Shown here piece by piece: positions 15,185 to 36,747 of a DNA stretch of 64,000 bases. Origin of the DNA: a virus (taxonomy: Duplodnaviria; Caudoviricetes); IMG/VR virus record IMGVR_UViG_3300028833_000110, positions 31,832-95,831 of that record. One strand, 5' to 3'. A program made the translations under genes and the position numbers. The stretch's first letter is position 1. Every line of letters starts with the position of its first letter. Under the pieces are notes generated by a model. That model searched no databases and had not been told where the DNA came from. It worked only from the letters and a program-made list of their open reading frames with translations.

Positions 15185-15194
15185 ATCTGTTTTG

Positions 15195-16023
15195 TTAATT
15201 TTTAGGTTGGATTGTATTTCTTATAGTAGTTTTTATGTTAGCTAATCCTTTATTTTTGTAAGAATCCAGGGCTAGTTTATAATTTTTCTTGGCAGTTTCT
15301 ATGTCTTTTTTAGTAGCACCTGATTTTCTCAATACCCTTAATCCTTGCTTAGACGCTCTCCCTTCCTCAGCTATAATACTACCTTCATTTATAATGTCCT
15401 GTATTACATTCTTTATCCCAGACCTCCTATGTGTTCCCATCAAACTTTTAACCATTCCATAGTTTTCATTAGAGACTGGTATTGATTCCCCGGCTTTTTT
15501 GTGTATTAACTTTATTATGGGATTTTTACTTTGGTCATTAGAAACATGGCCAATTTCATGTGAGATTTGGTCAATTCCCTGTAATCTTGGTGGAATTATT
15601 ATCTGATACTTCATCTTTCCCCTCTCTGTCGATCTTCTTAGGCCATTAACTCTCCTTCGCTTATTTTTAAATTTTTCAGTTATATCTTCTGCATTTGAAA
15701 ATCTATTTGCCACCTCATTTGTCATAACTTGTGGAAACTGTGGTTTTTTGCTAGTTTTAATATCTAGGCGGGAAATTCTAGCTCCTCTTTTTTGAGCCTC
15801 TTTATATACATTTGTTCTAACGGCTTTACTACTTGGGAGTTTTATTATCCCTTCGTTTTTCAAATTTCCTATATTATATTCTCTCGCGATTATATTCCCT
15901 TCAATCGATTTTGTCAGTTTATTTGCAAGTTTTTTTTCTTAGCTTATTTACAGAATCACCTACAATACCAAACTCTTTCTGTTGATATTCTTCTAATGTA
16001 ATTCCCTTTCGTAATATTATCAT
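15195..16023 (-). pseudogene. Leader-family HExxH Zn-peptidase, split by one extra base in A8 run (15930-15937)
   Basis: MIILRKGITLEEYQQKEFG...KLRKK then +1 frame LANKLTKS...LKNEG...SHEIGH...EEGRAS..GL..LRKSGA...LALDSY. Confidence 0.7.
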
Positions 16024-20163: not shown

Positions 20164-21165
20164 TTATTGAATTGGATGTATACGACTTTCATATTTACTC
20201 CAAACGGGAGTGGCAGATTTGTATGCACTTACACTCTCTGTTGGTACATAAATTGGACAACTACCTGTATTAGTAAACACATCTTCACCGAGCCCATCAT
20301 CTTCTATTGTGGGTGGATTTATTGCTTCACATACTATTGATTCTAGATTAGTACAACCAGTGAATGCACAATATCCTATTTCTGTGACTAAACTAGGTAT
20401 TCTTATTGAAGTTAAACTAGTACACCCATAACACATACTCGATGGTATTGAAGTAACAGAATTAGGGATATTAATAGAGGTTAAGTTAGTACACCCCATA
20501 AATACATCCTCCCCAAAACTAGTAACAGAATTAGGAATATTAATAGAGGTTAAACTAACACAATCCTTGAATACATCCTCCCCAAAACTAGTAACAGAAT
20601 TAGGAATATTAATAGAAGTTAAATTGGTGCACCCATGAAAAGTCTCATCATCTATTTTTGTATTAGTAATGGAATCTGGAATATTAATAGAAGTTAGTTT
20701 TTTGCAGAATCGAAAAACTCCAAAACCAATTGAAGTAACAGAATTAGGAATATTAATAGAGGTTAAATTCGAACAATATTCAAACGAACAATCACCAATA
20801 CTAGTAACAGAACTTGGAATATTAATAGAAGTTAATCTAGTACACTGAGAGAATACACTGCCTCCAATACTAGTAATGGAATCTGGAATGACAACTGAAA
20901 CTAATTCTTCATTCCAAGAAAATATTTCTGGTATTGATGTTAAAGCTTCTTTAAACTTAATAATACCTTTACCGTTATTATAGGTATTACTTTTTATTAT
21001 CTCTGATAGATCAGTAAAGTTTATTGCATTTCCACTAACACTAGTATACCAAATTTCATCATTAGGAGGTAGTATTATTTGGTTTTTTTTTGTTTTATTT
21101 AATATACTCCTAATTCTTAATAGCCAATCTTTTTCGCTATTGTTTAAATAAAGATTCTTATTCAT
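20164..21165 (-). CDS. BspA-type leucine-rich repeat protein
   Basis: About 8 C..LTSINIPNSVTSIG..F repeats. Confidence 0.9.
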   Translation of the reverse strand: MNKNLYLNNSEKDWLLRIRSILNKTKKNQIILPPNDEIWYTSVSGNAINFTDLSEIIKSNTYNNGKGIIKFKEALTSIPEIFSWNEELVSVVIPDSITSIGGSVFSQCTRLTSINIPSSVTSIGDCSFEYCSNLTSINIPNSVTSIGFGVFRFCKKLTSINIPDSITNTKIDDETFHGCTNLTSINIPNSVTSFGEDVFKDCVSLTSINIPNSVTSFGEDVFMGCTNLTSINIPNSVTSIPSSMCYGCTSLTSIRIPSLVTEIGYCAFTGCTNLESIVCEAINPPTIEDDGLGEDVFTNTGSCPIYVPTESVSAYKSATPVWSKYESRIHPIQ

Positions 21166-21184: not shown

Positions 21185-21249
21185 TAACATACAGGGAAAG
21201 TTTACTTACTATCCCCCTCCTGTATGTTATTTTTTTTAATGGGAGATAG
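21185..21249 (-). promoter_or_regulatory. H-type RNA pseudoknot element, copy 1
   Basis: CUAUCUCCC/GGGGGAUAG interleaved with UAACAUACAGG/CCUGUAUGUUA. Confidence 0.6.
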
Positions 21250-21343
21250 ATTTTTATTTATGCGTGGTGAGACTTGGTGCAAAAATTCTAGTCTTGGGTT
21301 ATGGTTCTAAGACTAAAACTCCTGCACCAAATATTCCCCGCGC

Positions 21344-23537
21344 TTAGAACAGATTATTTAACATGCCCTGGAATATTTTTTGGGTTTCTTCTAGGGCGGA
21401 TGATGTTTGAGAGGAGAATGATTGAATAGTTTTGCTTACTCCACCATTCATTCCTAGTTCTTGATATTTAGAATAGTGATAGTAGCAATTGAAGAGAGCA
21501 CCAGAAACAGCATCAGCAAGGTCTTTACTCCCCTCTAGCTTATTCCCTTCCATTCCCGCATGATCAAACTCATAACAACTTGAAACTAAGGGGTGATCTA
21601 TTTTACAATGCTCTCCGTTAACTCCATTATAAGTCACTAATAGCTCACTACATTCTCGTAAAAGTATGTTGATATAAGGAAGCTCTAATCTTTCTGAATT
21701 TACTATATTCTTAAAGACGTTATAAGCCTCCATAGTTTTATCTACGGAAAGGGGTCTGTAGGGAATTCCATCTCTTTCAGCATTTTGTAAGATTCCGGCA
21801 CTAGCAAAAGAGTCAGCACTAAACTCGACGATATATCCATTTTTCACTAAGTCTTGTAAAAATTGATAGAGGTGGTCTAGTGATGTAGCCTGTCCCTTCT
21901 TTCTGGAAACAACAAATGCTAATGGAACTTTGAATTTGGGAAGTGTATATTCTCCTACTTGTTTTTCCCCATCATAATAACATAAAGCTATCCCAGTTTT
22001 ATCCTTCTTCAATCCTATATCATAATGTACATATAGTGAAGTGCCTCGTGGAATTCTGTAGATCATATTTTCGACATGAGAATATATACTATCTTCCTTA
22101 TCATAAAAATCGACTATAATTTCCTCGGGACTGTAATTCTTTAGGGTTGAGCAGTTTATGAGATGAGATATATTACCGTTGAAGAATCTCTCATCGCCGC
22201 TATAAGATACTCCCGCTAAGTCTCTAAGATTTCGGATTGGGTCGGCCAGGAATTTAAATTTGGCAGAGATGGGAACATTAATCACTCTGTCAGGATCTAA
22301 TCCAGATTTCTCCAGATCTTCGGAGTCTTCGATCACGCGGGGACCTGTAATATTATCTCCTTTATAGAACCTAAAAGTCTTACCATTAGACTCAAGGTAT
22401 AGTGGATCATAACGTATATCCCATTGTGCAAATCTACAGCGGTATAATTCCTCTGGGGGAACGAGAGATTCAAACTTAGTAACAGCAATATTATCCGGGT
22501 CCCTCGCTGAGCTGTCACAAACTACATGTCCATAAACAAATCTTTTATCAGCAAAACGAGAATCATAACGAGTCACAACTTCTGAAGCTCGAGCAGCCCC
22601 CTCCGAGGACCTCCAGAAGCCCAGCTCTGATAAACAGGCATATATCAAATTTCTTATTTTATAATAATTTTTTATTATATTAGACTATATCTTGTATTAA
22701 AACAGTATATACATAGTCTTTGAACTACTTTAAATTAAAGTAGCTGCTGATTTAATATATTAATTATTTCCAGCAATTCTTATACTATGAGCAAACTTTT
22801 TACTCCGATGACATGACTCCCGCTAGAAGGACCCGAGGGGATAAAACGAATGGGTGGTTTATGATAAGGACTTCTAAAATAAGGACTTGTATCAAACACT
22901 AAGTCAACATAATTTTTGAAGTCTCTTTTGGCAGTCTCGAAAGAATTGTGAAAGAAAGCCATTCCTAGTTTACTGTTCGCAATCCCAAGAGACTTAAATA
23001 CATTTGTACAGCAATCCAATCTATGGTAAGTATAGAGTGCTAGGATCTTACTGATAGTTGATTTTCCAAGTCCACAGTTTTATAATATTTCTATTATGAT
23101 AAGACTATATCTTCTTTCGTATATACACATAGTCGTTGAATAAGATACATAATTATCTTACTGCTAGTTTAAATCGGAATTTGTTTCTAGCAATTCTTAT
23201 ATAGGCCGCTGGACTTTCTGTTAACGGCACCCCCAAGAGAAATCCAGGGGTATTTTGTAGTAATTGAATTTGGATAAATCTTTTCTAATTCAGCATACCA
23301 TGGATCAAATAATGCTTTTCCATGATTAAATAAGTTATCATCTCCCATAAAATAATCATCACATATAAATCTTCTTATAGTCACTGGTTTATGATCCATC
23401 CCCAGTAATTTACACGCTGCTAATATTTTCTCCTCATTAGAAAGTTTATTATATTCAGATTCAAGTATGTTTTGGTTTATATCTGATGAAATAGAAAGAG
23501 TAGGATCATCACCTATATTTATATTACTGTTTTTCAT
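21344..23537 (-). CDS. terL: Terminase large subunit, 3 exons: 23224-23537, 22802-23074, 21344-22652 (631 aa spliced)
   Basis: Splicing restores Walker A GGAVGLGKST and HVIGVNLIYACLSE (Walker B-like); RNase H-like nuclease YVHYDIG..KD.TG, KIDHP, SKDLADAV. Confidence 0.85.
22653..22801 (-). ncRNA. Group I intron 2 in terL (149 nt)
   Basis: P AATTGCTGGAAA, Q AATCAGCAG, R GTTCAAAGACTA, S AAGATATAGTC; P1 GAGU/GCUC with U.G; terminal G; P10. Confidence 0.85.
23075..23223 (-). ncRNA. Group I intron 1 in terL (149 nt)
   Basis: P AATTGCTAGAAA, Q AAACTAGCAG, R TTCAACGACTA, S AAGATATAGTC; P1 GCCGU/GCGGC; P10 AGUCCA/UGGACU; terminal G. Confidence 0.85.
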
Positions 23538-24831
23538 ATTCTTCTACTTTTTTAGGTTCTATTATGGGAATGATGGAGCTAATGTCTTCCCCATATATCA
23601 ATATCTTTTGTATTATGTCGAAAATATCATTAAATTCTTTTATATTGTATGGTATAACGATTAATTTTATCGATTTCCTCTCACAATACTCTTTTATAGC
23701 ATCGTCTCGTAATAATTGTTTAGAATAGTCTTCAATAGACCTTTGAAAGTCGTGATCCCAGAAATAATGTTGAGATCCATTATATTCAATTATATAAGTA
23801 GATCCTTTATAGTTTTCTAAGTAAAAATCAACATAAACCCTTTTTTGAACATTAACTAATTCAAACATTTCCTCACTATCAATCCGAAACTGAGGTGTAT
23901 ATTCAATTCCTAAATTATCTAATACATGAGCTACATGTTTCTCTCCTCTAGACTTAACTCGATCGAAGTTAAATATGCCTCGTAATAAATTTCCTGCTGG
24001 TACAGAGTATTCCTTACCTGTTCTACGATCTATTACTATTACATTAGTATCTCTTCCAACACGACTATTGGATCTTAAATAAACCGCCTTTGATAAATCT
24101 ATTATATCTCCGTAAATTTCCCTAACCCTTTCTTCAAACTCTTCTTGCGATATAGCATTCTGTCTTCCTACGGATAATCTAGCACAATTTGGGCATTGTC
24201 CAGTTCCATAATAATGCTCTCCGGGCATCTGTTCAAAAAACTCTCCACAAGTAAGACACTGAAGACGTACTTTAGTATGATTATTAACATACTTTGTTTC
24301 ACTATATCCAAATCTACCTGGAAACTTCTCCTTTGATCTTCTTATGAATTCTTCAGTGTCTACATATTGTTCTGTTTTTTCTTTAGATAACATTCCCGCA
24401 CATTGCCTGTTTTCATCTAATACTACTACAAGATCATGATAACTTGTTTCCCACTCTCCTATTACTTTATTTGTTTTAGTAGATACCTCATCTACATAAA
24501 TAGGTACATTAGTCTTTTTGTTTCTTATAATATCTGGAACATTACTGAAGTCATAATTAAAAATTCTTTTATTCTCAATTTCCCTAGAGTTATAATATCC
24601 TTCTATAAAATCCTCTTTCAGGATTATACCTTTTCCAATAGACCATCTTAATCCATCTTCTTTTATGTGTTTGAGAACAAATTGTTTAGTATGTCTGTGT
24701 TTATCAGTGGCATTAGAAAACCACCTTAATCTCTTCTCTACTCTCTCCACACTAACTCCTAATTCTTTAGCTACACCTTCGACCGTGTACTTTTCTTCAA
24801 ATGGAAATTCTTCTCTTTTACCGTTTTGCAT
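23524..24831 (-). CDS. Free-standing homing-endonuclease-like protein (Zn-ribbon repeats plus Vsr/PD-(D/E)xK-like domain)
   Basis: C..CG..F....HY.G.GCP.C repeats; SRGE, YVDFYL, IIEYNG.QH, D..K..YC....I.LI.IPY. Confidence 0.75.
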   Translation of the reverse strand: MQNGKREEFPFEEKYTVEGVAKELGVSVERVEKRLRWFSNATDKHRHTKQFVLKHIKEDGLRWSIGKGIILKEDFIEGYYNSREIENKRIFNYDFSNVPDIIRNKKTNVPIYVDEVSTKTNKVIGEWETSYHDLVVVLDENRQCAGMLSKEKTEQYVDTEEFIRRSKEKFPGRFGYSETKYVNNHTKVRLQCLTCGEFFEQMPGEHYYGTGQCPNCARLSVGRQNAISQEEFEERVREIYGDIIDLSKAVYLRSNSRVGRDTNVIVIDRRTGKEYSVPAGNLLRGIFNFDRVKSRGEKHVAHVLDNLGIEYTPQFRIDSEEMFELVNVQKRVYVDFYLENYKGSTYIIEYNGSQHYFWDHDFQRSIEDYSKQLLRDDAIKEYCERKSIKLIVIPYNIKEFNDIFDIIQKILIYGEDISSIIPIIEPKKVEEYEKQ

Positions 24832-24997
24832 AATCTTACTTTAACTGCTTCCCGAGATATGTTATTATTCTTATCTTATTCATTTTATTTCTAGCATGTT
24901 TAAAAATGTGAGGAGTACTTAAGGTAGCTATTCTTGTTCCTCCTCACCCTTAAGATTATGCTAGAACGGGTTTTATCTCTTCGTCAGTTTTCCTTAG

Positions 24998-25048
24998 ATC
25001 TCGCAGTGTAATCGAATACTACATCCCCTACCTATGATGCTGCGAGAT
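24998..25048. repeat. Conserved hairpin element B, copy 1
   Basis: ATCTCGCAG/CTGCGAGAT stem enclosing GTGTAATCGAATACTAC. Confidence 0.65.
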
Positions 25049-25067
25049 TATAACCGCGCATATTCTT

Positions 25068-25511
25068 TTACGCTTTTATTCCTTTCTTGATTAGACTTTT
25101 TGGATTAAGCTTTTTTTTCAATTTCCATTTTCTATCTTCATTCAATAGTCTTAAACCGTTATAATCATTAGAACTCTTTAGTTTATTGTACCTAGCATCA
25201 TAATTATAAGTGTTTTTTTTCACGTAATCTTTATCAAATCTTTCCTGTCTTACTCCTCTTTCTGGTGTAAACTCTATATCTCCACGATCTCGTGATCTAG
25301 CATTATGTATAGCAAGATCTTGCATATTACGCAAATCACCTCTTTTCGTCTTATTATCAATAGGCTCTCTTAGTTTATCTAAAAAACTTGAATCCACCGG
25401 CATACCCGCATTTTCGTGTTCTTTTATATCATCCTCTATAAATTCTTTAAGGTAATCTATGTTTTTCTTACCCTTCTTACGAGCAAATTCTTTTTGTCTT
25501 AGTATTATCAT
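25068..25511 (-). CDS. Leader-family basic protein
   Basis: MIILRQKEFA. Confidence 0.75.
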   Translation of the reverse strand: MIILRQKEFARKKGKKNIDYLKEFIEDDIKEHENAGMPVDSSFLDKLREPIDNKTKRGDLRNMQDLAIHNARSRDRGDIEFTPERGVRQERFDKDYVKKNTYNYDARYNKLKSSNDYNGLRLLNEDRKWKLKKKLNPKSLIKKGIKA

Positions 25512-25523
25512 TATTTATCATTC

Positions 25524-25592
25524 AACATACAGGGAAAATTTAACTTACTACCCCCCCCCTATATGTTATTTTTTTTACAAATGGAAGGTAGT
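25524..25592 (-). promoter_or_regulatory. H-type RNA pseudoknot element, copy 2
   Basis: ACUACCUUCC/GGGGGGUAGU with AACAUAUAGG/CCUGUAUGUU; ends 12 nt before ATG. Confidence 0.6.
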
Positions 25593-25681
25593 TGATTTAT
25601 TATTTATTATTAATCCCACAACAAACTAGGGATGAAAATTAAGTGATAATCATTTCAATATTACTTTCTACTCTGATTATT

Positions 25682-26179
25682 TCATAGCCTCTCAATTTCT
25701 TTACATATTTTTTTAGCTAAGTCTCTTTGGTTTCCAGGTTCAAAATCTTCTGGGGAAAAATATCCCTTCATTATTTCTTTAGGGTCTACTTTTTCAAACT
25801 TCTTTATAAATAATCCCTTCTTCACATACCACTCTTTTCCTGATACATCACACCATAATTTAGCGGCGATCTCAGAATATCCAAATTCCTCTGCTGTATC
25901 TAAGTTATCATAGAAAAGGCACACATATTCTTTCCCATCCTTTTCTTCTGTATATGGTCCCTCAGGAAACTTTTCTGGTTCGAATACAATGGCAGCATGT
26001 ATTAATTCTTCTTCTTCCGTAAGTTCTGAAAATTCTTTGATAAGGGGATTAATTTTATCTAGGAACTCAACATAAAGGGAAGGGTAATTCAAGGCTTTAA
26101 GTTTTTTTATCTCATCATTCCCAACTACAATTCCAGTATGATGTCTCCAAGCAAACTCTTTTTGTCGTAGTATCTTCAT
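25682..26179 (-). CDS. Leader-family acidic protein
   Basis: MKILRQKEFA. Confidence 0.75.
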   Translation of the reverse strand: MKILRQKEFAWRHHTGIVVGNDEIKKLKALNYPSLYVEFLDKINPLIKEFSELTEEEELIHAAIVFEPEKFPEGPYTEEKDGKEYVCLFYDNLDTAEEFGYSEIAAKLWCDVSGKEWYVKKGLFIKKFEKVDPKEIMKGYFSPEDFEPGNQRDLAKKICKEIERL

Positions 26180-26484
26180 AGCTTTAATTTTTTAGTTTGT
26201 CTCTTTATCATCTCTTCTTCCTGCCGGTTGAAGGTGTCTGTATTCGCTAGTCTTTGTTCTGGAGTTAGTTTTTCTGTATTCTTTCCTGCCCCTAATATAT
26301 TAACTCTTGCCTTTCCCACATTTTTAGCTCTTCTCGCCTGTCTTCTTCTTTTTCTTTCTATCTTTCCCTCAAGAGCATCAGTAACCCTAGCTCGTTCAAG
26401 ATCGCTTAATTCACTTCCCTTTTTATGAATAAACCTGGAAATAGCTTCATGATAAGAGTAATTATTTTGTCTCAGTATTTTCAT
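26176..26484 (-). CDS. Leader-family basic protein
   Basis: MKILRQNNYS. Confidence 0.7.
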   Translation of the reverse strand: MKILRQNNYSYHEAISRFIHKKGSELSDLERARVTDALEGKIERKRRRQARRAKNVGKARVNILGAGKNTEKLTPEQRLANTDTFNRQEEEMIKRQTKKLKL

Positions 26485-26911
26485 TATCTCTACTCCTTCT
26501 TTTTTTCTTAGTTATTTTATCGTAAGCTATTCCTCCAGCTGTGGCTCCAATAACAGTAGCTGGTAAAATAAACTTTGATCTATGTTTAAGAACTGCGTTT
26601 TTTCCAGCCTCTTTACTTTTACTTATTGCCTCTTTTTCATACATTTTTTTCAGTTGTTCTACTTGAGAAATTGAATCTTTATCTGTTAACTCTTGTGCCA
26701 ACCCTATATTTTTTTTTATTCGTTCTAGTCTATCGTTTAAATCTTTATTGTAGTTCTTATTAAATACTTCATCTTTTCCTTTCTCAGATAAAGCATAACC
26801 ACCAACAGCACCAATTCCAGCACCGACAGCCGAAGAACTAGCTATTCCAATTTTATTAGCTAGACCCTTCTTTTCTTTTTTCTGCTCTTGTTCTTTTCTC
26901 TTTATTTTCAT
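26462..26911 (-). CDS. Leader-family glycine-zipper protein
   Basis: MKIKRK; two hydrophobic Gly-rich segments; basic tail. Confidence 0.7.
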   Translation of the reverse strand: MKIKRKEQEQKKEKKGLANKIGIASSSAVGAGIGAVGGYALSEKGKDEVFNKNYNKDLNDRLERIKKNIGLAQELTDKDSISQVEQLKKMYEKEAISKSKEAGKNAVLKHRSKFILPATVIGATAGGIAYDKITKKKRRSRDNENTETK

Positions 26912-27225
26912 TTTTTTAATATTAATCTGTCTCCTGTAATTCCTTTGTAGTCCTTTGGTATATTTTCTTCTCCACCAAAAATAGAATAAGCATTAGTTCC
27001 TTTACTAATCTTTTCTCCTCCCCCATGATCTCCAAGTGTTAAACCTGGAAAATCTGGATCTATACCCTCCGAACTATCTAAGAATTCATCATGTATCTTT
27101 TTAAGCTGATTTAAAGTACTAAGTGTATATCCTTCTATATTATCAGCTTTTACGAACTTATTTAAATAAAATTTTAGATCCATCAATTGGGCAATTGTTA
27201 TAGAGGTCTCGAAAAAAGTCGACAA
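26908..27225 (-). CDS. ORF overlapping gp26-like gene in +1 frame (possible frameshift extension, gp51-like position)
   Basis: Frame opens just before TTT TTT CGA of upstream ORF; TTG start only. Confidence 0.55.
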   Translation of the reverse strand: MSTFFETSITIAQLMDLKFYLNKFVKADNIEGYTLSTLNQLKKIHDEFLDSSEGIDPDFPGLTLGDHGGGEKISKGTNAYSIFGGEENIPKDYKGITGDRLILKK

Positions 27226-27907
27226 TGAGATTTTCTACACTCACTGCCACTAACCCCCTTTCTCCCTTCTCTATACATCCTGGACAAGTTAATTCAAGGG
27301 GTTCTAGTCTATCATAGTAAATATCACGAAGAGCCATAAGAAGGGTTATATCTTCGTGAACAGCCCCTAATACATCCTGCTCAATCTGGTTTCCATCAAG
27401 ATCAAAATTCTTCATCAATGCTATAGTTTTGATCATTTTAAGGTCTGTAATTTTTCTATATTTTAAGTATTTTTCAAAGACCTTAAGAAAATCAGAAACC
27501 GTAGGAATAGTGACATCATATTTATGCCCCGACAACTCTATAACAGCCCCATTCATTATTTTATCATCAATTTGCTTAAAATGTATGTCGGTTTCTAGAT
27601 TAATTTTCTTTCTTATCTTAGTACCACATTCAGGACAAGTTATGGAAAGATCATAAGTTAGGTCCCCGGAAACAGTACAAAGCTTCTTATAAAAAATTAA
27701 GAAGTCAACATCCATTACATAACAGTTAAGAACATTTTTATCTTCCTTAATTAATAATTTTATATCAAATAAGTATTTTTCTAGGGGATCTTTGGGTACA
27801 TTCTCTAGGTATTGTGTTAGCTCTAAAAACGTCATAGGGCTAACAGATAAAGAGGGAAAATCATAACCATATCCCCCACTAGGTAATTGCGAAGTTAATA
27901 CTATCAT
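27158..27907 (-). CDS. T4 gp26-like baseplate hub/tail assembly protein
   Basis: LPSGG..Y, D.DFL, TCPECG, PTV.D, TCPGC, ..DFF. Confidence 0.65.
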   Translation of the reverse strand: MIVLTSQLPSGGYGYDFPSLSVSPMTFLELTQYLENVPKDPLEKYLFDIKLLIKEDKNVLNCYVMDVDFLIFYKKLCTVSGDLTYDLSITCPECGTKIRKKINLETDIHFKQIDDKIMNGAVIELSGHKYDVTIPTVSDFLKVFEKYLKYRKITDLKMIKTIALMKNFDLDGNQIEQDVLGAVHEDITLLMALRDIYYDRLEPLELTCPGCIEKGERGLVAVSVENLIVDFFRDLYNNCPIDGSKILFK

Positions 27908-27936
27908 ATTTTTATTCCATTTTTAAGTTATATTAG

Positions 27937-27981
27937 TTCCCAGAGTGTAATTGAATACTACCTCAGTTTAGGCTCTGGGAA
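27937..27981. repeat. Conserved hairpin element B, copy 2
   Basis: TTCCCAGAG/CTCTGGGAA enclosing GTGTAATTGAATACTAC. Confidence 0.65.
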
Positions 27982-27994
27982 ATTATAGGGTTAT

Positions 27995-28603
27995 TTATTT
28001 CTTTTTACCATATTTTTTAGCATACTCTTCTTCAGACATATCACCCTCAACAACTTTAATCATGTCTCTATTCTTTTCAAATCTCTTAGCTGCCTTTGAG
28101 TTGGGATGTTTCTCTACATGGTTGCTCTCAAGATGAGCAATACCACCCCCAAGTCCAGCGGCTCCGGCACCTATAGCAGTACCAATAGCGGCTGACTTCA
28201 ATCGGCTATTACTAGGGAATCTTGTCACACCTCCATAAAGCCCCAATGTAGCAGCACTAGCGGGAAGGTGACGTTTCATTTGTTCGTTGATCCCTTCTTT
28301 TCTCACATCAGGATCCTCACTATTACGTTTTTTATAAGAATCGTAGGTAAAATATCCAGTGTGTCCTTTTTGATGTGATTTATCCCAAGATTTGATTTCC
28401 TGTCTATCTCCCCATTTTACTCCCAACTCCTTAAGTCTTTTATCTCTTTCTTTTCTCCTTTTCCTATCTTCTTTACCAAACTCCTTTTGTGCATATTCAT
28501 AGCCATCACAAAAAGCTCTTTCAAGTAATTCATCTAATTCATCATTACCAGTACTATATAATCTTTCTTCCTGATAATTACTGTATAATCTTTCTATTTT
28601 CAT
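27995..28603 (-). CDS. Leader-family protein, paralog of 35367..35831
   Basis: MKIERLYSNYQEERLYS...AQKEFG then Gly-zipper payload. Confidence 0.8.
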   Translation of the reverse strand: MKIERLYSNYQEERLYSTGNDELDELLERAFCDGYEYAQKEFGKEDRKRRKERDKRLKELGVKWGDRQEIKSWDKSHQKGHTGYFTYDSYKKRNSEDPDVRKEGINEQMKRHLPASAATLGLYGGVTRFPSNSRLKSAAIGTAIGAGAAGLGGGIAHLESNHVEKHPNSKAAKRFEKNRDMIKVVEGDMSEEEYAKKYGKKK

Positions 28604-28615
28604 TTATTTCTCGTT

Positions 28616-28684
28616 GCTATAGGAGAAATTGTTTTTATCTTATCACCCCCCCCCTATAGCTTTGTTTTTATAAAGGGGAGATAA
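28616..28684 (-). promoter_or_regulatory. H-type RNA pseudoknot element, copy 3
   Basis: UUAUCUCCCC/GGGGUGAUAA with GCUAUAGG/CCUAUAGC; ends 12 nt before ATG. Confidence 0.6.
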
Positions 28685-28691
28685 TATTGTT

Positions 28692-29705
28692 TTAGTTATT
28701 TTTATTTTGCTCTTCCATCACTTTTTTCAGAGCTTCATTTTCTCTCTTTTTTCTTTTTGCAGCTAATCTTTTATAAGCTACCTTTGTTCCTATAGAAGTA
28801 GCTGCAAGTGGGATGGCTGCGGCGGCTATTTTTGGACCATTCTTCAGGTGTTTTAGATATTTAATCTCAGATTTCGGAAGTTCCCCTTCATAATACTTCA
28901 GGGCTTCTTTACTCATCTTCTGAGCTTTTTCACTCATCTTATCTCGATAATTCTCGAATTCTTTTGAGGTCCATTTTTCCATAAGATCTTCAGTACTTAT
29001 TTTGGGATAACGCTCTTTCAATATCTCTTTTTCTGATTTTATTATATTTCGGACAGGAATAACAGCAGAACCTATGGCTCCTATTTTTGTTCCATACGAA
29101 ATCCCACGTAAAGCCTTTTCCTTTTTTTCTTCCTTATCGTAATTATAATTATTATCTTTCTCTTTTTTCGAATTTGTTAGCTTCTTAAGACCTCCATAAA
29201 TAGTACCGGCGGCTAATGAACCTATGGCTAAATTTTTCCTAAACTTTTTATTGGATTTTAATTTATCCTCTAATTTCTTCTTTTCTTTCTCAACTATTTC
29301 TCCAGTTTTTTGTTTCCCAGTTCTGTACTTAGATAAGGCCTCGTCTTTTATTCTTTTTATTTCCTCATTTTCTACTTTGGTATCACCACCATTAGATTTT
29401 ATTTTTGAGGACTTTAAAAAATCTGTAACGCTATCTGGTAGATCTCCAGTCATTATTCGTGCCTCTTGAATTTTAGCTCTTCGATGTGGTATAAGTTTTT
29501 CTTTGACATATTCATCAAAGTTATCTTTCGCTCGTTTTACTTTTTCATTAGAGACTTTTTTGCTCTTACGGTCATCTATGCGACTAATTGCTTGAGATGT
29601 CCCAATTCCACTAAGAGCTACAACTCCACCACCAATAAGAGCTGATCTGTCTTTCTTATCTTTCTTTTCTTTATCAGAAAAGCTTTTAGTTCTTAGTATT
29701 TTCAT
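28692..29705 (-). CDS. Leader-family lysine-rich protein with 4 hydrophobic segments
   Basis: Start reassigned to MKILRTKSFS. Confidence 0.75.
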   Translation of the reverse strand: MKILRTKSFSDKEKKDKKDRSALIGGGVVALSGIGTSQAISRIDDRKSKKVSNEKVKRAKDNFDEYVKEKLIPHRRAKIQEARIMTGDLPDSVTDFLKSSKIKSNGGDTKVENEEIKRIKDEALSKYRTGKQKTGEIVEKEKKKLEDKLKSNKKFRKNLAIGSLAAGTIYGGLKKLTNSKKEKDNNYNYDKEEKKEKALRGISYGTKIGAIGSAVIPVRNIIKSEKEILKERYPKISTEDLMEKWTSKEFENYRDKMSEKAQKMSKEALKYYEGELPKSEIKYLKHLKNGPKIAAAAIPLAATSIGTKVAYKRLAAKRKKRENEALKKVMEEQNKNN

Positions 29706-29721
29706 AATTTTAATATAATTT

Positions 29722-30534
29722 TTATGCACCCTGAGTTAAGTGTCTGGTACTAGTTCCTCCGGGAAGGGCTATTCTTCTGGAAGCTCTTGCTAGTGTATTG
29801 GCCCTACTAACATGTTTATAGGAACCCAAAGATGTTTTATAAAATCTTTTCGCATCCCTCAGTTCCTCTCTACTAGCTCCAGATCTCCTTAATAGTTTGA
29901 GACCTTTTCTTGATGCATTACCTTCTTCTAATATTGTTAACAGACTTTTTGGAATAGATCTCTCTCCTACTGGAGTCATATTATGATAAAGAGTACCTTC
30001 ATTCATTGTATTTCTCGATATTCTCCCCGATAAACCAGGACGATTACTCATGGCCCTATTACTATTCAAAGCATGCCCCGACTCATGAGCAACTACAGCA
30101 GCTGGGGGATTCACAGGGACAAGTATAGTATTCTTTCTATTTTTTGAATTAGTAGCTAATTTATTCTTTACTTCCTCAGGTATTGTAGGATTATTTTGAA
30201 AAAACTCTACAAACGTATTAGCCTGTTTAGGGCTATAAAAGGATCCACCACCAGTTAATTCGGGGGTTTTAACAATATCTATGTTATTATTTTTTGCGAA
30301 ATCCTCTAATTTTCCTAGTACTTTAGTATTGGTTGGTGTTTCATTATACCAGGTATTACTTAAATATGTTTTCTGCATTCCCTTATTGGCCTGATTTTCT
30401 GCAGACTTTCTTAGTCGATTAGAAACATTTACTCTAGTTCGACCTATATTTTTCCTTAAAGTCCTCTTTATTCCTGAATGTTTAATATCGCTTATAATAT
30501 TAAACTCTTTCTGTTTTTGTCGTAGTATTTTCAT
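29722..30534 (-). CDS. Leader-family HExxH Zn-peptidase
   Basis: MKILRQKQKEFN; AHESGH...EEGNASRKGL.LLRRSGA...SLGSY. Confidence 0.8.
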   Translation of the reverse strand: MKILRQKQKEFNIISDIKHSGIKRTLRKNIGRTRVNVSNRLRKSAENQANKGMQKTYLSNTWYNETPTNTKVLGKLEDFAKNNNIDIVKTPELTGGGSFYSPKQANTFVEFFQNNPTIPEEVKNKLATNSKNRKNTILVPVNPPAAVVAHESGHALNSNRAMSNRPGLSGRISRNTMNEGTLYHNMTPVGERSIPKSLLTILEEGNASRKGLKLLRRSGASREELRDAKRFYKTSLGSYKHVSRANTLARASRRIALPGGTSTRHLTQGA

Positions 30535-31199
30535 TAGTTTATTTTTTGTAGTTCGTATCTTTGTGTTTTTATTAACAGTTCTACTTCTTTTATCCCCCTT
30601 GTATCACCCTCTTTTTGTAAGACATTTATGGTCTCGATGTTCTCTGATTCCATAGTTTTTATAAGTTCGGGTTTAAGTTGAGACCAGCTATTGAATTTTT
30701 TATTTCCCCTTCCAAATATAAAATATTTCTTTTCTAAGTTCCAAGAAACTTCACAATATCCTTGAGGATCACTAAATAATGTTACTATATTAGACTCCCT
30801 ATATTCAACTATATCTTTTGGGGTACTTGGATAAAGAACTACATACTCATCGCCATCGCCCCAAGTAGGAACCTTTACCTTCTTAAATGCTTCTACCCAT
30901 TTAAAGTACTGAGGTGGTAATTGTGGTTTAATGTTTTCGAATTCTAATAATATTTCTCCACTCTTTCTATTAGCTTCTTTATTCAGGGCTTGTTGTTTTC
31001 TATTTTTACTAATTCCATAATATGCTCCTAATCCAGCTCCAGCAACAGCACCAATTCCAGCACCTATTAATGCTTTCTTTGGATTACCACCTATAGCACC
31101 AGTACCTATTCCTCCAAGAAATCCTCCTACAAGGGCACCATCCCTTACTTCCTTTAATACCTCTTTAGTACTATATTCTTTTTGTCGTAATATTTTCAT
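30534..31199 (-). CDS. Leader-family glycine-zipper protein
   Basis: MKILRQKEYS; GALVGGFLGGIGTGAIGG...GAGIGAVAGAGLG. Confidence 0.8.
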   Translation of the reverse strand: MKILRQKEYSTKEVLKEVRDGALVGGFLGGIGTGAIGGNPKKALIGAGIGAVAGAGLGAYYGISKNRKQQALNKEANRKSGEILLEFENIKPQLPPQYFKWVEAFKKVKVPTWGDGDEYVVLYPSTPKDIVEYRESNIVTLFSDPQGYCEVSWNLEKKYFIFGRGNKKFNSWSQLKPELIKTMESENIETINVLQKEGDTRGIKEVELLIKTQRYELQKIN

Positions 31200-31738
31200 T
31201 TTTCTAGTTTCTTCATTATATCGAGGAATTTTTGTTTGGCTTCTTCTACTATTTTTAACATATCCTCTTCTGTTTTCTTATTATGTGAAGGCTCTGTTAT
31301 TATATCTTCAGGGTTTACTACAGGTTTTCCGGAGATAACACACCCCAAAACATAACTACATGCCTCATCTTTATAATTCCATGCACTTAGACAATCATAG
31401 TATCCGGTTATATAAGATTCTCCTAGGTTTTTCTGATAAACTAGGATCTTCTTCGTATAATTTTCTAACTCTATTAATAATTTTTCCTCTACTGTAAATT
31501 GGTGTTTAATATCTTTAAATGGGGGTATAAAATCATTAAATCCCGGCAAACCTATCTCTTGTCTTTTGTTATTAATGAGCCTTAGTATTTTTAAGCAGTC
31601 ATTAAATCCATGTTCATAGAGCTCAGTATTAATTTTAGTTTGGGTGGGGTTTTCTAAAATATCATAAACCTCACCACTATTATCAGCGTACTTATCTAGA
31701 TCACCGTTTAACCAAGATTGTAATATTTTTTGTTCCAT
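31196..31738 (-). CDS. Hypothetical protein
   Basis: 180-aa ORF. Confidence 0.7.
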   Translation of the reverse strand: MEQKILQSWLNGDLDKYADNSGEVYDILENPTQTKINTELYEHGFNDCLKILRLINNKRQEIGLPGFNDFIPPFKDIKHQFTVEEKLLIELENYTKKILVYQKNLGESYITGYYDCLSAWNYKDEACSYVLGCVISGKPVVNPEDIITEPSHNKKTEEDMLKIVEEAKQKFLDIMKKLEK

Positions 31739-31765
31739 ATTAATTGTTTGTTTTATTTTTGTTTA

Positions 31766-31972
31766 TTAAAAGTGTAGTGGTTTTCTTATTAGTTTTGTCG
31801 AAGCTCTTTTAATATTTAATTTAGGCATCTTCGACTCTATAAAACTATCTGTTTGCTTGCTAAAATTTAGTTTAGCCTGTAATTGTTTTTCTGACCAATG
31901 CGGATATTTCTTTTTATAGTATTCATAGTCAGATGCGTCAATACTATAGTTTTTTTCTCTAATTATTTTCAT
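31766..31972 (-). CDS. Leader-family small protein
   Basis: MKIIREKNYS. Confidence 0.7.
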   Translation of the reverse strand: MKIIREKNYSIDASDYEYYKKKYPHWSEKQLQAKLNFSKQTDSFIESKMPKLNIKRASTKLIRKPLHF

Positions 31973-31975
31973 AGT

Positions 31976-33004
31976 TTATTTTCTACTTTTTTTATAAATA
32001 GGGAATTTATTATACATATCATAATTAATATCTCTAACCCCAGCATTTAGGTAGGTTTGAAAGGCATCATTTAAATACCCTTCACCTCTTTCTGCATAAG
32101 TTGGTGTTATCTCCCCTTTCTTAACCGCTAAATTATGAATAGCATTGGCCTGTGAACTAGCATAATTTTCCTCAGCTAATTTTCTAATATCACCAGAAAA
32201 CTCTAGTCCAGTCGATAGCCCCTTTTTGGATGAAATAGCATGCCCAACCTCATGACCCAATACATATGGGTGAGCACCTGGCTTTACAGTAATTATGTCA
32301 TCATAGGTGTTATAACTATTACGATTTCCACTTTCGATTTGAGTTTTTGGTGTTACTCTACTAAGTTTTTTAAACACAGAGTTCATAGAATTCATTGGCT
32401 CTGAACCAGGAATGAAATCTTTATCTTTCATTGGATCTATATTATCTAATCGTTGACCGGCTTCTTCGTACCCACTCAGTGAACTATTATAAACCTTACT
32501 CGCAGATTTTGGTGCCCTTCTCTTAACAAATGGAGCCAACTCAGTATTTTTTTGATCCTCCAGTTTCCTCGACATTGCTTCAAGTCTATCAATATTACGA
32601 GGAGAATAATTAATTCCATAATGCCAATTTAATTCTCCGACTTTTTCCTGTTTAGTATCATACTTATTTTTTATTTGATTCACTTCCCGATTATGAATTC
32701 TTTGAAATCGTTTTTGAAATTCTGAGTCATATATATTACGATATTTCTGAATTAGGTGTTTTATACCTTTTCCAGATTCAGGCAATCCCATTCTCTCAAG
32801 GACCTGTCTAGCTTCATCATAATTAATACCTTCAAGATCCCCATAATCTATTTTTCGAGCAATATCATTAATTCTATATACATCCCTAGCATTCATTCCC
32901 TTCTTGCCTTTCGGAAGATGTTTAAGTCCTCCTGTAGCTTTATAAAATTCAAGAAATGCTTTTTTATCTTGGAATGTAAATAGTTTCTGTCGTAGTATTT
33001 TCAT
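31976..33004 (-). CDS. Leader-family HExxH Zn-peptidase
   Basis: MKILRQKLFT; GHEVGH...EENYAS...DAFQTY; N-terminal ~100 aa shared with next ORF. Confidence 0.8.
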   Translation of the reverse strand: MKILRQKLFTFQDKKAFLEFYKATGGLKHLPKGKKGMNARDVYRINDIARKIDYGDLEGINYDEARQVLERMGLPESGKGIKHLIQKYRNIYDSEFQKRFQRIHNREVNQIKNKYDTKQEKVGELNWHYGINYSPRNIDRLEAMSRKLEDQKNTELAPFVKRRAPKSASKVYNSSLSGYEEAGQRLDNIDPMKDKDFIPGSEPMNSMNSVFKKLSRVTPKTQIESGNRNSYNTYDDIITVKPGAHPYVLGHEVGHAISSKKGLSTGLEFSGDIRKLAEENYASSQANAIHNLAVKKGEITPTYAERGEGYLNDAFQTYLNAGVRDINYDMYNKFPIYKKSRK

Positions 33005-33993
33005 TTTCTTACTGCTTTTTTGATTCCACCAAAAAGTTTATTGGCACCACCACGTGTATATGTCGCTAATGCTGAATCTAAGGATTTTCGTGCCTTTCTC
33101 TCTACTCCTGGACGTATTTCTCCCCTTTTTACTCCGCTTCTTAATCTAGCTAATGCTCTAGAGGATGCCATATTTTCTTCTGCAATTTCAGATAGCGCAT
33201 CATTAGCATCAGTGGCTCTAAATCCGGGATCAAATCCTCTCTTATAATTTTGCTGATGTCCCCATTCATGTAAAAAAACAGATGGATTATAAGAAGAAAC
33301 ATAGATTTGATCTGGAAACATAGAATTAAAGTAGTTTTGTCCAGGTTTCGGGATAACAGTGAACACATTATCTTTCTCTAATACGTTAGCTATAAACTTT
33401 GTAGTCCTTGGTCCTCCAATACCTCTTTTTTTATACTTTCTTTCAACCCTATTATTTTGTGATTCAAAACGTTTTCCGGCATTGAGGAGGATATTTTCTT
33501 TTCCTTCAAAAAGAGGGTGTGATGGTTTATAGGTTTTATTAAGCCTATCTAAATTCCTATCAATCAATGTGTCGTATTTTTTATAAACCTCATATGGATT
33601 ACTAGATACATAGGCCTCTCTATCAGCTCTAGTAGATAATTTTTTATTTAGGTTCATATTTTTTCTGAATGAATCTCCAGACATAATATTTTCATACCTA
33701 TCCTGAAATTCTGGATCCTGTATCAACTTATATTTATGACTAAGGTGTTCTAATCCTTTTGCTGTCTCTGGAAGGTCAATATGTTCAAAAACCTTCTTTG
33801 CCTCATTCCAATTTACTTCATTAATTCTCCCCTGATCTACTAACTCCGCCCACTTTTTAAACCTATATACATCCCTAGCATTCATTTTACCTCGTCCATT
33901 GGGTAAAGTGGTGAAATTATTAGTTGCAGCCTTCAGTTCTTCCCAAGCTTTTTTATCTTGGAATGTAAATAGTTTTTGTCGTAATATTTTCAT
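33001..33993 (-). CDS. Leader-family HExxH Zn-peptidase
   Basis: MKILRQKLFT; LHEWGH...EENMASSRAL...SALATY. Confidence 0.8.
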   Translation of the reverse strand: MKILRQKLFTFQDKKAWEELKAATNNFTTLPNGRGKMNARDVYRFKKWAELVDQGRINEVNWNEAKKVFEHIDLPETAKGLEHLSHKYKLIQDPEFQDRYENIMSGDSFRKNMNLNKKLSTRADREAYVSSNPYEVYKKYDTLIDRNLDRLNKTYKPSHPLFEGKENILLNAGKRFESQNNRVERKYKKRGIGGPRTTKFIANVLEKDNVFTVIPKPGQNYFNSMFPDQIYVSSYNPSVFLHEWGHQQNYKRGFDPGFRATDANDALSEIAEENMASSRALARLRSGVKRGEIRPGVERKARKSLDSALATYTRGGANKLFGGIKKAVRK

Positions 33994-34685
33994 TCTTTTA
34001 TTCCACTATCTTTTTTAAATAGATCCATAAAATTTCTCACCATATTCTTACTGTCTTCACTATCTATTTCTGAGTCATTATTTTCTTCACTTAATTTCTT
34101 GAGTAATTTATCAGAGTCTTGTACAGTCACTTCATCAAGCATATCTGATAAATCTTTTGAGAGACTAATTAACTTCTCGACGAGAAGAATAGAGTCACTT
34201 GAAGTAAATTGGTTCGGATCCAGTAAAAACTCAGGTCTCATGGTATAATCTATGAGGATCATTAGTTTCTGGATCAAAGTAAGTAATAATATTGGTTTTA
34301 TGGATTTAAATGTTTCAGACAGATATAATTCTAGGATCTGTCTTTTCTTTGGATCACCTACATCTACAACAGCCTGAGATAAATTTCTAATGTCTATGCT
34401 AAGATCAAGTCCATATTCTTCATTATACTTGGTAAATACACTCTCTATGGCTTTGGTTAACTCTTCATTTTTCTGATTTTTTTCGGATAAACTTAGAGCA
34501 TTAGCATCCATTATAATATTCTTAGCGCTCTTTGGTAGTGTAGGAGCAGCAGTTATCATATTCTTTAAAGCTTCGGGACTAGTATCTTCTATTACCTCTG
34601 CTTCCTCTATTTCCATTCTGCCTTCTTTTCTGAGGATTTGCTGCTTTATTTCCTCATTATCGAAGGGATTTACACTTTTTAACAT
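33990..34685 (-). CDS. Acidic helical hypothetical protein (possible morphogenesis protein)
   Basis: 231-aa ORF without leader inside late cluster. Confidence 0.7.
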   Translation of the reverse strand: MLKSVNPFDNEEIKQQILRKEGRMEIEEAEVIEDTSPEALKNMITAAPTLPKSAKNIIMDANALSLSEKNQKNEELTKAIESVFTKYNEEYGLDLSIDIRNLSQAVVDVGDPKKRQILELYLSETFKSIKPILLLTLIQKLMILIDYTMRPEFLLDPNQFTSSDSILLVEKLISLSKDLSDMLDEVTVQDSDKLLKKLSEENNDSEIDSEDSKNMVRNFMDLFKKDSGIKE

Positions 34686-34700
34686 ACCATATTTTATTTT

Positions 34701-35174
34701 TTACTTTAATTTTAGCTTCATTAATTTCAGTGAGTCTTCATCATGATATTTAATTATCTCACCTGTATATTTAAATCCTAATTTCTCATAAATGTGTTGT
34801 GCTCGTTTATTTTCTACTGGTACTTCAAGTGTAATCCACTTATACTTTAATTCTCTTAGGTATTTTATTATAGCCATCAGTGCTTTTGTCCCATATCCAT
34901 TATTTTGATATTCATTATCAACAAAGAACCACGGAATATTAATTTCTTCGTTAGATTCTTTATTTAACATTATGTAACCAATGTTTTTTGAAGATAGCAT
35001 AATATCATATATAACACACAGGCCCTGTTGTTCTTTAATTCTTTTTGATAACTTCCCTAAGATTTTAGATATAATAGTTGGTTTAGTTTTTACTAAACTT
35101 AAGTTATCCCCAAGGTCTATTAGATTAATAGACTCTGACTTAAATGAATAGAGTTTTTGTCTTAATATAATCAT
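34701..35174 (-). CDS. Leader-family GNAT acetyltransferase
   Basis: MIILRQKLYS; V..EYQNNGYG, N.RA..IYEKLGF. Confidence 0.85.
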   Translation of the reverse strand: MIILRQKLYSFKSESINLIDLGDNLSLVKTKPTIISKILGKLSKRIKEQQGLCVIYDIMLSSKNIGYIMLNKESNEEINIPWFFVDNEYQNNGYGTKALMAIIKYLRELKYKWITLEVPVENKRAQHIYEKLGFKYTGEIIKYHDEDSLKLMKLKLK

Positions 35175-35313
35175 TTTAATTCCTCCTTTTTAATATTTCT
35201 CAGGATTTCTCTTTTCTTTCCAAACCCAGTCCAATAATCCCTTTTATACATTACAGGGACATGCTTAATCTCCTTTCCTCATTGTCGAAAGGATTTATTT
35301 AATTTTACTTAGC

Positions 35314-35358
35314 TCCCAGAGTGTAATTGAATACTACATCTATTTCAATGCTCTGGGA
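35314..35358. repeat. Conserved hairpin element B, copy 3
   Basis: TCCCAGAG/CTCTGGGA enclosing GTGTAATTGAATACTAC. Confidence 0.65.
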
Positions 35359-35366
35359 AAAAATTT

Positions 35367-35831
35367 TTATTCTTGTTCTTTTCTCCTTCTTCTCTTTTCT
35401 AATTTTACTGCTCTAGATGCTCTACCATGACCAATAGCTTGCTTACCATGAATTCCAGTCTTCATATATTCAGCAGCGGCAAGGGTACCTAATGCAACAC
35501 GACCAGCTTTTGATTTCGCCAATTTTCCGGTAGCATTCTTATCGTGAAGGGTTTTGGTTAGTCCTCCAGCAATAGAAGCATCAATACCTCCTGCAACACT
35601 ATGACCTACAGACTTTTTAAAATTATCCCAACCTAGTTTATTTAATTCTTCATCACTGAGGTTTTTTAATTCGTCTTTAAATTCTTTCATGGATTTCTTA
35701 GCAAATTCTCTTTGTGCATATTCATAACCCTCACAAAAAGCTCTCTCAAGGAGATCATCAAGTTCATCATTACCAGTACTATATAATCTTTCCTCTTCCT
35801 GATAATTACTGTATAATCTTTCTATTTTCAT
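35367..35831 (-). CDS. Leader-family protein, paralog of 27995..28603
   Basis: Near-identical first 43 aa ending AQREFA, unrelated payload afterwards. Confidence 0.8.
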   Translation of the reverse strand: MKIERLYSNYQEEERLYSTGNDELDDLLERAFCEGYEYAQREFAKKSMKEFKDELKNLSDEELNKLGWDNFKKSVGHSVAGGIDASIAGGLTKTLHDKNATGKLAKSKAGRVALGTLAAAEYMKTGIHGKQAIGHGRASRAVKLEKRRRRKEQE

Positions 35832-35843
35832 TTATTTCTCGTT

Positions 35844-35911
35844 GCTATAGGAGAAATTGTTTTTATCTTATCACCCCCCCCCTATAGCTCTGTTTTTAAG
35901 GAAGGATGATA
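35844..35911 (-). promoter_or_regulatory. H-type RNA pseudoknot element, copy 4
   Basis: UAUCAUCCUUC/GGGGGGUGAUA with GCUAUAGG/CCUAUAGC; ends 12 nt before ATG. Confidence 0.6.
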
Positions 35912-35916
35912 TTGTT

Positions 35917-36747
35917 TTATTCTTGTTCTTTTCTCTTTCTAGATAATTTACCAGTAATTTTTCCTGCCACTCTTCCAACACCAGTCATAGCAATCTGAGC
36001 CGCTGGACGAATTGCATAGGATCCAAGAGCATACGCCAGAGACTTTCTACTTCCTCTTAGTTGCGCTTTTGAGGCTCCAGCGTTTTTCATCAACCTTAAA
36101 CCCCTTCTACTTGCATCAGCCTCTTCAATTAATACTGGAGCATTTATTGCAGCCACTGGAACATATGCTCCAACTTTTTTTATTGTAGAATTGTCGTCAT
36201 TTTTTGTTTGATTATAACCCGAGGCAAATCCACTAGCCAAACCAATTGCACCTGTATTTTTTAGTAATTTTGAATACCTTAATCTCCCTTGTAGATCATT
36301 AAATAAAGAACCCCTAGCAGCTCTTTCTGCATGACCTAGTTCATGTGCTAATGTAGAAGTATCTTTCAAATTATTAAGTTTTACCGTACCAGCGGCGTTA
36401 TTTGGGTCCTTAATCCAGTCTTGATCAATTATTTTTCCACTTACTTTTACTTTTTTACCTTGTTTAATTGATTTTTTGATTCTATTTATATCCCTCTTAG
36501 ATATATATCCCCCAAAGGCTTCACCCCCTCGTGCAAACTTTCTCGGATTAACTTGAATCTCACTTACCACATTTTTATAATTAGGAACTTTTTTAAATTC
36601 CTCTATTACTTTTCGTGATAAGTCTACATTCCCACTCCCCTCTCTCGCTTCAATATGCTTCTTAAATAGAAAGGAATTAATTGGGTCAGTTATCTTTTTA
36701 CGAGGGGGGGGGTTATCGTTAAATAATTTTTGTCTTAGTATTTTCAT
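35917..36747 (-). CDS. Leader-family HExxH Zn-peptidase
   Basis: MKILRQKLFN; AHELGH...EEADASRRGL.LMK.AGA...ALGSY. Confidence 0.8.
   Translation of the reverse strand: MKILRQKLFNDNPPPRKKITDPINSFLFKKHIEAREGSGNVDLSRKVIEEFKKVPNYKNVVSEIQVNPRKFARGGEAFGGYISKRDINRIKKSIKQGKKVKVSGKIIDQDWIKDPNNAAGTVKLNNLKDTSTLAHELGHAERAARGSLFNDLQGRLRYSKLLKNTGAIGLASGFASGYNQTKNDDNSTIKKVGAYVPVAAINAPVLIEEADASRRGLRLMKNAGASKAQLRGSRKSLAYALGSYAIRPAAQIAMTGVGRVAGKITGKLSRKRKEQE

Follow-up and report, generated by a model that had tools for sequence, protein, structure and literature searches.

A strand-specific, covarying H-type pseudoknot family just upstream of start codons in a clade of huge phages

Introduction

What is the function of a folded RNA that recurs about a dozen nucleotides before start codons, in a phage genome that makes no use of Shine–Dalgarno (SD) sequences? 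The question is raised by a stretch of 64,000 nucleotides (the window) of the IMG/VR virus record IMGVR_UViG_3300028833_000110 (Duplodnaviria; Caudoviricetes). The window covers positions 31,832–95,831 of a source contig of 95,831 bp (record G000), whose completeness is estimated at 24%, which corresponds to a phage genome of about 400 kb; a megablast search against deposited phage records gave no near match to the contig. An earlier reading, made from the letters of the window (hereafter the sequence-only reading), had proposed that four pseudoknots on the minus strand, which is the coding strand here, are copies of an unannotated cis-regulatory RNA of late genes, for example a translational enhancer or operator, or an element that blocks nucleases.

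The element is a strand-specific, covarying RNA pseudoknot family of a clade of huge phages, and it is new to catalogues. Below we describe the evidence for its fold, its distribution and its position relative to genes, and then consider what it may do.

Two helices that covary on the coding strand

We are confident that each copy is, in the mRNA, an H-type pseudoknot of 60–75 nt. The four sites of the window have the parts and the coordinates that had been proposed, on the minus strand: S1a, an A-rich loop, S2a, a G-run that belongs to S1b, a second loop, and S2b. The crossing order S1a, S2a, S1b, S2b is identical in all copies, and both helices are compensated, which defines the H-type class. 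In S1 (9–13 bp), a pyrimidine tract and three to six variable bases pair with the 3' part of the G-run and a variable tail, while the inner G–C pairs of S2 (9–12 bp) draw on the first G of the same run. Since the first two to four G of the run are in S2 and the others in S1, the two helices abut. Both loops are A-rich (61% A in loop 1).

The tests of covariation compare copies from related loci, which were fetched from viral and metagenome contigs (one of the latter, JAEEGL013338223.1, is 379,862 bp long) by means of an N-terminal domain shared by four of the proteins encoded downstream of the element. Upstream of the fetched homologues the element is present with different stem sequences. Covariance models, the first of which (R1) describes S2 only, retrieved about 33 distinct copies in these related contigs.

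Regarding S2, 94.5% of the cells of the model alignment are paired, compared to 70.4% after shuffling, a value that none of 500 shuffles reaches. All nine pairs show double changes, the covariation score is 0.606 vs 0.155, and the signal collapses when the register is slid. The alignment had been fitted to S2, which biases this test in favour of S2; a helix search that uses no alignment also finds S2 in nearly every copy, in many different sequences.

The tests of S1 were made without any alignment. The S1 duplex has a predicted energy of −11 to −20 kcal/mol in 33 of 33 copies (RNAduplex), and cognate S1a/S1b pairs are more stable than non-cognate ones (−15.7 vs −13.2 kcal/mol, a difference reached by none of 20,000 permutations). 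This advantage survives trimming of the G-run to three G, where the variable tail alone decides (5 of 100,000 permutations), and it also holds when a single representative is kept for each of the 16 tail classes (median p of 2–4e-4). When the tails are anchored at the last G, their five non-G positions are 82.4% paired, against 56.5% after shuffling (0 of 20,000), with at least three pair types at each position. The claim that the stems differ and nevertheless keep pairing therefore holds for both helices, which pass covariation and shuffle tests across the related contigs. Very divergent copies, among them L064:2579–2678 and L059:3876–3968, keep both helices with unrelated sequences.

The expectation that G.U pairs would be valid only on the mRNA strand is also borne out: G.U makes up 21% of the S1 pairs, and the S1 energy is −16.2 kcal/mol in the sense orientation vs −9.9 kcal/mol in antisense. 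This shows that the structure belongs to the RNA of the coding strand.

Apart from the G-run and the pyrimidine tract, no position is constant. The UAAG at the junction of S1b and the loop, which the sequence-only reading took for a conserved feature, is present in just 16 of 33 copies, and an AACAA motif in 12 of 33. As a separate observation, the G-runs (7–10 G) differ in length between close relatives.

A long alternative hairpin, in which S1 is extended into loop 1, was considered and rejected: it is the minimum free energy fold in copy C alone. Judged by eye, the complementarity that it requires also occurs in copy E and is absent in copy D and in the class I copies.

Copies in the contig, in relatives and in catalogues

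The four proposed copies (A to D, Table 1) are all real, but the contig contains six, two of which lie outside the window; all six are on one strand, according to a scan of the whole contig for G-runs and to covariance models, even with filters off. One base has to be bulged in S1 of copy C.

Two half elements were also seen, which may be decayed copies or chance matches; neither has a G-run or an S2b. The first, at about 31975–32005 of the window (minus strand), consists of a pyrimidine tract and an A-rich stretch resembling loop 1, directly before a start codon. The second, at 2,224–2,285 of the related contig G002, is also directly before a start codon and keeps S2a in addition to the pyrimidine tract and the loop-1-like stretch.

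Table 1. Coordinates of the pseudoknot copies, of the genes that follow them and of the 3' structured elements (window positions unless a record is named; CM, covariance model; scores are in bits, duplex energies in kcal/mol)
Feature	Position	Strand	Parts or product	Scores	Surroundings
Two pseudoknot copies before the window	G000 14,535–14,632 and 15,092–15,190	same as A–D		found by G-run scan and CM	
Pseudoknot copy A	21186–21249	minus	S1a 21241–21249, S2a 21219–21228, S1b 21209–21217, S2b 21186–21195	CM R1 76.9, R2 77; S1 duplex −15.2	ATG at 21165, 20 nt away
Gene after copy A	20164–21165	minus	333 aa, BspA-type leucine-rich-repeat (LRR) protein	Pfam LRR_5, E 1.2e-65	
Pseudoknot copy B	25524–25592	minus	S1a 25583–25592, S2a 25557–25567, S1b 25547–25556, S2b 25524–25534	CM R1 86.4; S1 duplex −16.3	ATG at 25511, 12 nt away
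Gene after copy B	25068–25511	minus	147 aa, MIILR-type N-terminal leader		
3' structured element after copy B gene	24998–25048	minus			
Pseudoknot copy C	28616–28684	minus	S1a 28675–28684, S2a 28652–28660, S1b 28640–28651, S2b 28616–28625	CM R1 102.3; S1 duplex −19.0	ATG at 28603, 12 nt away; 5' edge 5–7 nt past the stop codon of the upstream open reading frame
Gene after copy C	27995–28603	minus	202 aa, conserved acidic N-terminal domain of about 45 residues, variable C-terminal part		
3' structured element after copy C gene	27937–27981	minus			
Pseudoknot copy D	35844–35911	minus	S1a 35900–35911, S2a 35881–35888, S1b 35869–35880, S2b 35844–35851	CM R1 90.1; S1 duplex −18.4	ATG at 35831, 12 nt away; 5' edge 5 nt past the upstream stop codon
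Gene after copy D	35367–35831	minus	154 aa, paralogue of the copy C gene		
3' structured element after copy D gene	35313–35359	minus			

Within the sequences sampled, the family is restricted to a single clade of huge phages. Scans of viral contigs with exact 18-mers returned only the known relatives and two chance matches (L025 and L026), and further pattern scans gave chance matches only. At least 120 stretches from cellular genomes match the pattern; the covariance model had no match in the 80 of them to which it was applied, in a scan that was not exhaustive.

The element was correctly described as unannotated. When the region was searched against Rfam 15, only tRNAs reached the gathering score, and a search at E up to 10 with the region and with 111-nt slices gave only noise (for example RT-18, 18.6 bits for a cut-off of 41.3); no Rfam family matches it. 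Literature searches did not return a description of the element.

Position relative to genes

The distance from the outer end of S2 to an ATG that opens an open reading frame (ORF) on the coding strand is 10–14 nt in 27 of 33 copies. In the window, as first noticed, S2b of copies B, C and D ends 12 nt before the ATG, and that of copy A, which precedes the LRR gene, 20 nt before it. An ORF directly follows 32 of 33 copies, the last one having no clear ORF. The element thus lies on the coding strand at a set distance from the start codon, which is what characterizes a cis-regulatory leader.

At the other end, S1a begins 1–13 nt past an upstream stop codon in 15 of 33 copies. Since S1a covaries with S1b, it has to be transcribed, and with so short a gap these 15 copies must be within a polycistronic RNA; a promoter of their own in the gap is excluded. 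In a related contig, the copy C gene has an orthologue that is not preceded by the element; the start of this orthologue overlaps the upstream stop codon, a layout that is typical of translational coupling. This comparison suggests that the element accompanies free-standing starts.

The same observations bear on the idea that the element is a signal at the level of DNA. It could be a promoter whose −10-like box is the A/T-rich loop 1, or a site for recombination or for cassettes; the pairings would then be fortuitous or would form in single-stranded DNA. In favour of this idea, loop 1 is frequently similar to a −10 box, the layout is cassette-like, and two half elements retain the 5' part (a truncated copy in G002, at the positions given above, and the one near 31997 of the window). 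Against it, S1a and S1b covary through G.U pairs that hold on just one of the two strands, the 15 copies above start within 13 nt of a stop codon, and motifs like those of loop 1 are frequent all over this AT-rich genome. Nor did our scans detect an enrichment of sigma-70-type consensus promoter or terminator patterns (these scans are uninformative as regards the host). We consider such a DNA signal very unlikely.

It is hardly credible that the element is a riboswitch, a self-cleaving ribozyme or a recoding stimulator, acting on the upstream gene by frameshifting or readthrough. The pseudoknot topology is that of such RNAs, and the fact that about half of the copies begin 1–13 nt past a stop codon is a spacing also seen for recoding stimulators. 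On the contrary, a recoding stimulator can be rejected, since stop codons are present in all three frames within 32 of 33 copies, which makes an extended upstream product impossible. Regarding riboswitches and ribozymes, there is no match in Rfam, and the divergent members do not share an invariant unpaired core.

A possible role at translation initiation

The start sites of the contig show no SD enrichment: an SD-like 4-mer occurs at −20 to −5 in 15 of 115 ORFs, compared to 16 of 115 in a control window, and G accounts for 7–17% across these positions. An excess of A is seen at −3 (63%) and from −14 to −17. SD-independent initiation with an A at −3 has been described for Bacteroidia, whose ribosomes ignore SD sequences (PMC6847099; see also PMC7797042). 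Being A-rich with an A at −3, the phage start sites resemble the Bacteroidia ones. No enrichment was seen for the Bacteroidota −7 motif TAnnTTTG, and a gene for ribosomal protein S21 was not found in the fragments examined, which is uninformative since the records are fragmentary.

Two ways in which the element could have taken part in an SD-type interaction were rejected. The G-run cannot be a working SD sequence: it is 35–45 nt from the ATG, in a genome with no SD use. A mimicry of the 3' tail of 16S rRNA by S1a is not a general feature, because only the subclass with a UGAU tail resembles an extended SD/anti-SD pair.

Three observations favour a role at translation initiation: the ATG is at a set distance, the element is intercistronic, and the genome shows no SD use. 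It is quite possible, if short of probable, that the pseudoknot acts at the initiation of translation of the downstream gene. The channel of the 30S subunit holds the mRNA from roughly −15 to +16, so a rigid fold whose edge is at about −12 would be at the exit end of this channel. There, the pseudoknot could hold the A-rich start region of 12 nt in single-stranded form and insulate it from the upstream sequence and from upstream ribosomes; or it could position the subunit so that the ATG falls in the P site; or else it could be a docking site for a protein that gates initiation. A secondary effect on the stability of the mRNA would be compatible with this role.

A more specific proposal, which we regard as rather unlikely, is that the fold of the pseudoknot stands in for the SD interaction: it would dock at the platform or exit end of the mRNA channel, on an SD-blind 30S subunit of the Bacteroidia type, and would act as a ruler that sets the P site about 12 nt downstream. 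If that is so, selected intercistronic phage genes would gain an autonomous initiation that is independent of coupling, and this would be a bacterial counterpart of structure-guided start-site selection.

Several observations weigh against a role at initiation. Overall, the spacers range from 6 to 21 nt. The constant spacing could partly reflect the co-duplication of the element with a conserved gene start, against which speaks the fact that classes of elements that are unrelated in sequence keep the spacing. Most of the genes that carry the N-terminal leader described below, and the region of the capsid gene, have no copy, which indicates that the element is not needed for expression in general. 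The idea of a Bacteroidia host comes from the start-site statistics alone. Regarding the fold, nested folding gives modest z-scores, and the G-run can extend S2 instead of pairing in S1. Last, it cannot be concluded from covariation that S1 and S2 coexist in one molecule; on steric grounds this is plausible, the loops spanning about 8–17 nt across S2 and about 10–25 nt across S1.

The proposal of a cis-regulatory RNA thus stands as far as an uncatalogued, strand-specific, covarying H-type pseudoknot just upstream of starts is concerned, and the roles that the sequence-only reading listed include the two explanations that we rank highest, one at initiation and one in mRNA stability. The link to late genes is plausible, considering that the element is found among structural and cargo genes.

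Downstream genes and a 3' partner element

Almost all of the genes that follow the element encode small proteins with an N-terminal leader of the MKIER or MIILR type; two are LRR genes. The conserved N-terminal domain used to fetch the related loci, about 45 residues long, is common to four of the six downstream proteins of the contig. The homologue of the copy A LRR gene in the relative L052 is likewise preceded by the element. The product of the copy B gene has neither a Pfam nor a PHROG match, and the flanking proteins are mostly blank in searches against PHROG and Pfam.

The genes after copies B, C and D are followed by a second structured element (Table 1), in which a variable, covarying closing stem of 8–9 bp surrounds an invariant core of about 17 nt, which folds into a small T-loop-like hairpin. 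It may be a 3' end, a terminator or a processing signal. Cassettes consisting of pseudoknot, ORF and 3' element also occur in the relatives L045, L047, L048, L049, L050, L051 and L052.

The recurrence of these cassettes, in the contig and in at least seven related loci, is an argument for a different function, that of an mRNA boundary or stabiliser. At the 5' end of a cistron released by processing, the knot would hold off decay that depends on this end and, with the 3' element, would delimit a long-lived monocistronic segment, so that selected cargo genes of a long operon give more product. The intercistronic position of the element agrees with it, as does the fact that knots of the H type are hard to unwind when approached from 5', as seen with frameshift stimulators and exonuclease-resistant RNAs. 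On the contrary, a stabiliser has no need for a set distance of 10–14 nt to the ATG, the 3' element is missing after copies A and E, and no processing site is known. We see the stabiliser as the main rival, though a doubtful explanation; it is important to note that this role and one at initiation are not mutually exclusive.

Other features of the neighbourhood are worth recording. The 3' structured element is also found at about 13700–13740 and 13920–13965 of L001. Two paralogous ORFs of 435 aa, both intergenic and on the minus strand, adjoin copies of the 3' element (23524–24831 in the window and 12355–13662 in L001); the one in L001 matches HNH/homing-endonuclease PHROGs (E 1.6e-49), and the one in the window, which was scanned against Pfam only, gives weak matches. 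A near-perfect hairpin of 24 bp lies at 21265–21339 (minus strand; −39.4 kcal/mol, z −8.35), between the ORF at 21344–22648 and copy A, and no U-tract follows it. Another hairpin, with a stem of about 10 bp and a conserved loop, is found just upstream of copies E and F (L001, about 14640–14680 and 15195–15240, minus strand) and precedes some copies in the relatives L054 and L064. A short conserved motif that contains ATGCGC lies about 20–30 nt upstream of some copies in relatives (L049, about 3020–3045; L047, about 3165–3190; L054, about 3885–3910). In the ORF at 35917–36747, which encodes a zinc-peptidase-like protein with the leader, a run of nine C on the coding (minus) strand (36704–36712) is near the N terminus; such a slippage-prone tract could cause phase variation, or it could be an assembly artefact.

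Comparison with known RNAs

The Rfam families DUF805b (RF02914) and DUF805 (RF03081) resemble the phage element in kind only, as leader pseudoknots near start codons in an SD-poor setting; the phage element is 60–75 nt long and about 12 nt from the ATG. Running both models on the whole contig gave no match at the pseudoknot sites. Their best matches in the genome are elsewhere, at 10.8 and 13.2 bits (best hits of 8–13 bits for cut-offs of 35.6 and 51.1).

The closest studied analogues are the knots of T4 gene 32 and of rpsO, which differ from the phage element in size, position, copy number and regulated gene. The gene 32 knot is small and single-copy, is separated from the start by roughly 40 nt or more, and nucleates the binding of the gene's own product, a single-stranded-DNA-binding protein. 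In the phage element, on the contrary, each genome has many copies, with stems of 9–13 bp and an edge at −12, and the genes that follow encode unrelated cargo-type and LRR proteins. What the T4/T2 gene 32 leader shares with it is an H-type knot in the leader of a phage mRNA, followed by a start region that is unstructured and A/U-rich; that leader is an autogenous translational operator which acts on translation initiation (PMC3014915). An autogenous operator of this type was rejected for the phage element, since the downstream LRR and small acidic-leader proteins match no nucleic-acid-binding family.

A broader version of the same idea is an operator for a trans-acting protein, from the phage or from the host, which would read the shape and block or release the start site, as in the precedents of T4 gp32, RegA and the autoregulation of ribosomal proteins. 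The multiple copies, the conserved shape, the edge at −12 and the partial conservation of single-stranded motifs (UAAG and AACAA) are what an operator would look like. However, no nucleotide apart from the G-run is invariant, no candidate binding protein was identified, and the downstream proteins are acidic at their N terminus and match no RNA-binding family. An operator is thus an unlikely explanation.

The pseudoknot of Escherichia coli rpsO (S15), in an mRNA that docks on the platform of the 30S subunit (PMC7038950), has in common with the phage element a knot next to the start and an effect on the 30S initiation complex, which in the phage would be the proposed role. The rpsO knot is a repressor site that includes both the SD sequence and the start codon, whereas in the phage the start codon is 12 nt outside the fold and the genome is SD-free.

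Elements that stabilise mRNA from the 5' side include the STAB-SD of cryIIIA, the polypurine stabiliser of SP82 and the exonuclease-resistant RNAs (xrRNAs) of viruses. Like them, the phage element places a stable fold and a purine-rich run that resembles an SD sequence before the coding region, which could block 5'-to-3' decay. STAB-SD works by binding of the 30S subunit to an exposed SD sequence, unlike the phage element, whose G-run is paired in a genome that does not use SD sequences. The xrRNAs have defined ring folds with conserved cores, and no ring fold with a conserved core is seen in the phage element.

Last, the preQ1-II and SAM-II riboswitches, which sequester an SD sequence, also have an H-type knot with A/U-rich loops close to the start. 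They have invariant nucleotides in the ligand pocket and comprise the SD sequence, whereas the phage element has no invariant core, no SD sequence and no match in Rfam.

Significance

How start sites are chosen without SD sequences is a question for Bacteroidia and for their very abundant gut and rumen phages. The family described here is a new RNA family for the annotation of huge-phage genomes. A compact, multi-copy fold, supported by covariation and located at a set distance from start codons within operons, offers a handle that can be mutated to study structure-assisted initiation or insulation. Together with its 3' partner element, the pseudoknot may serve as the boundary of a portable expression cassette.

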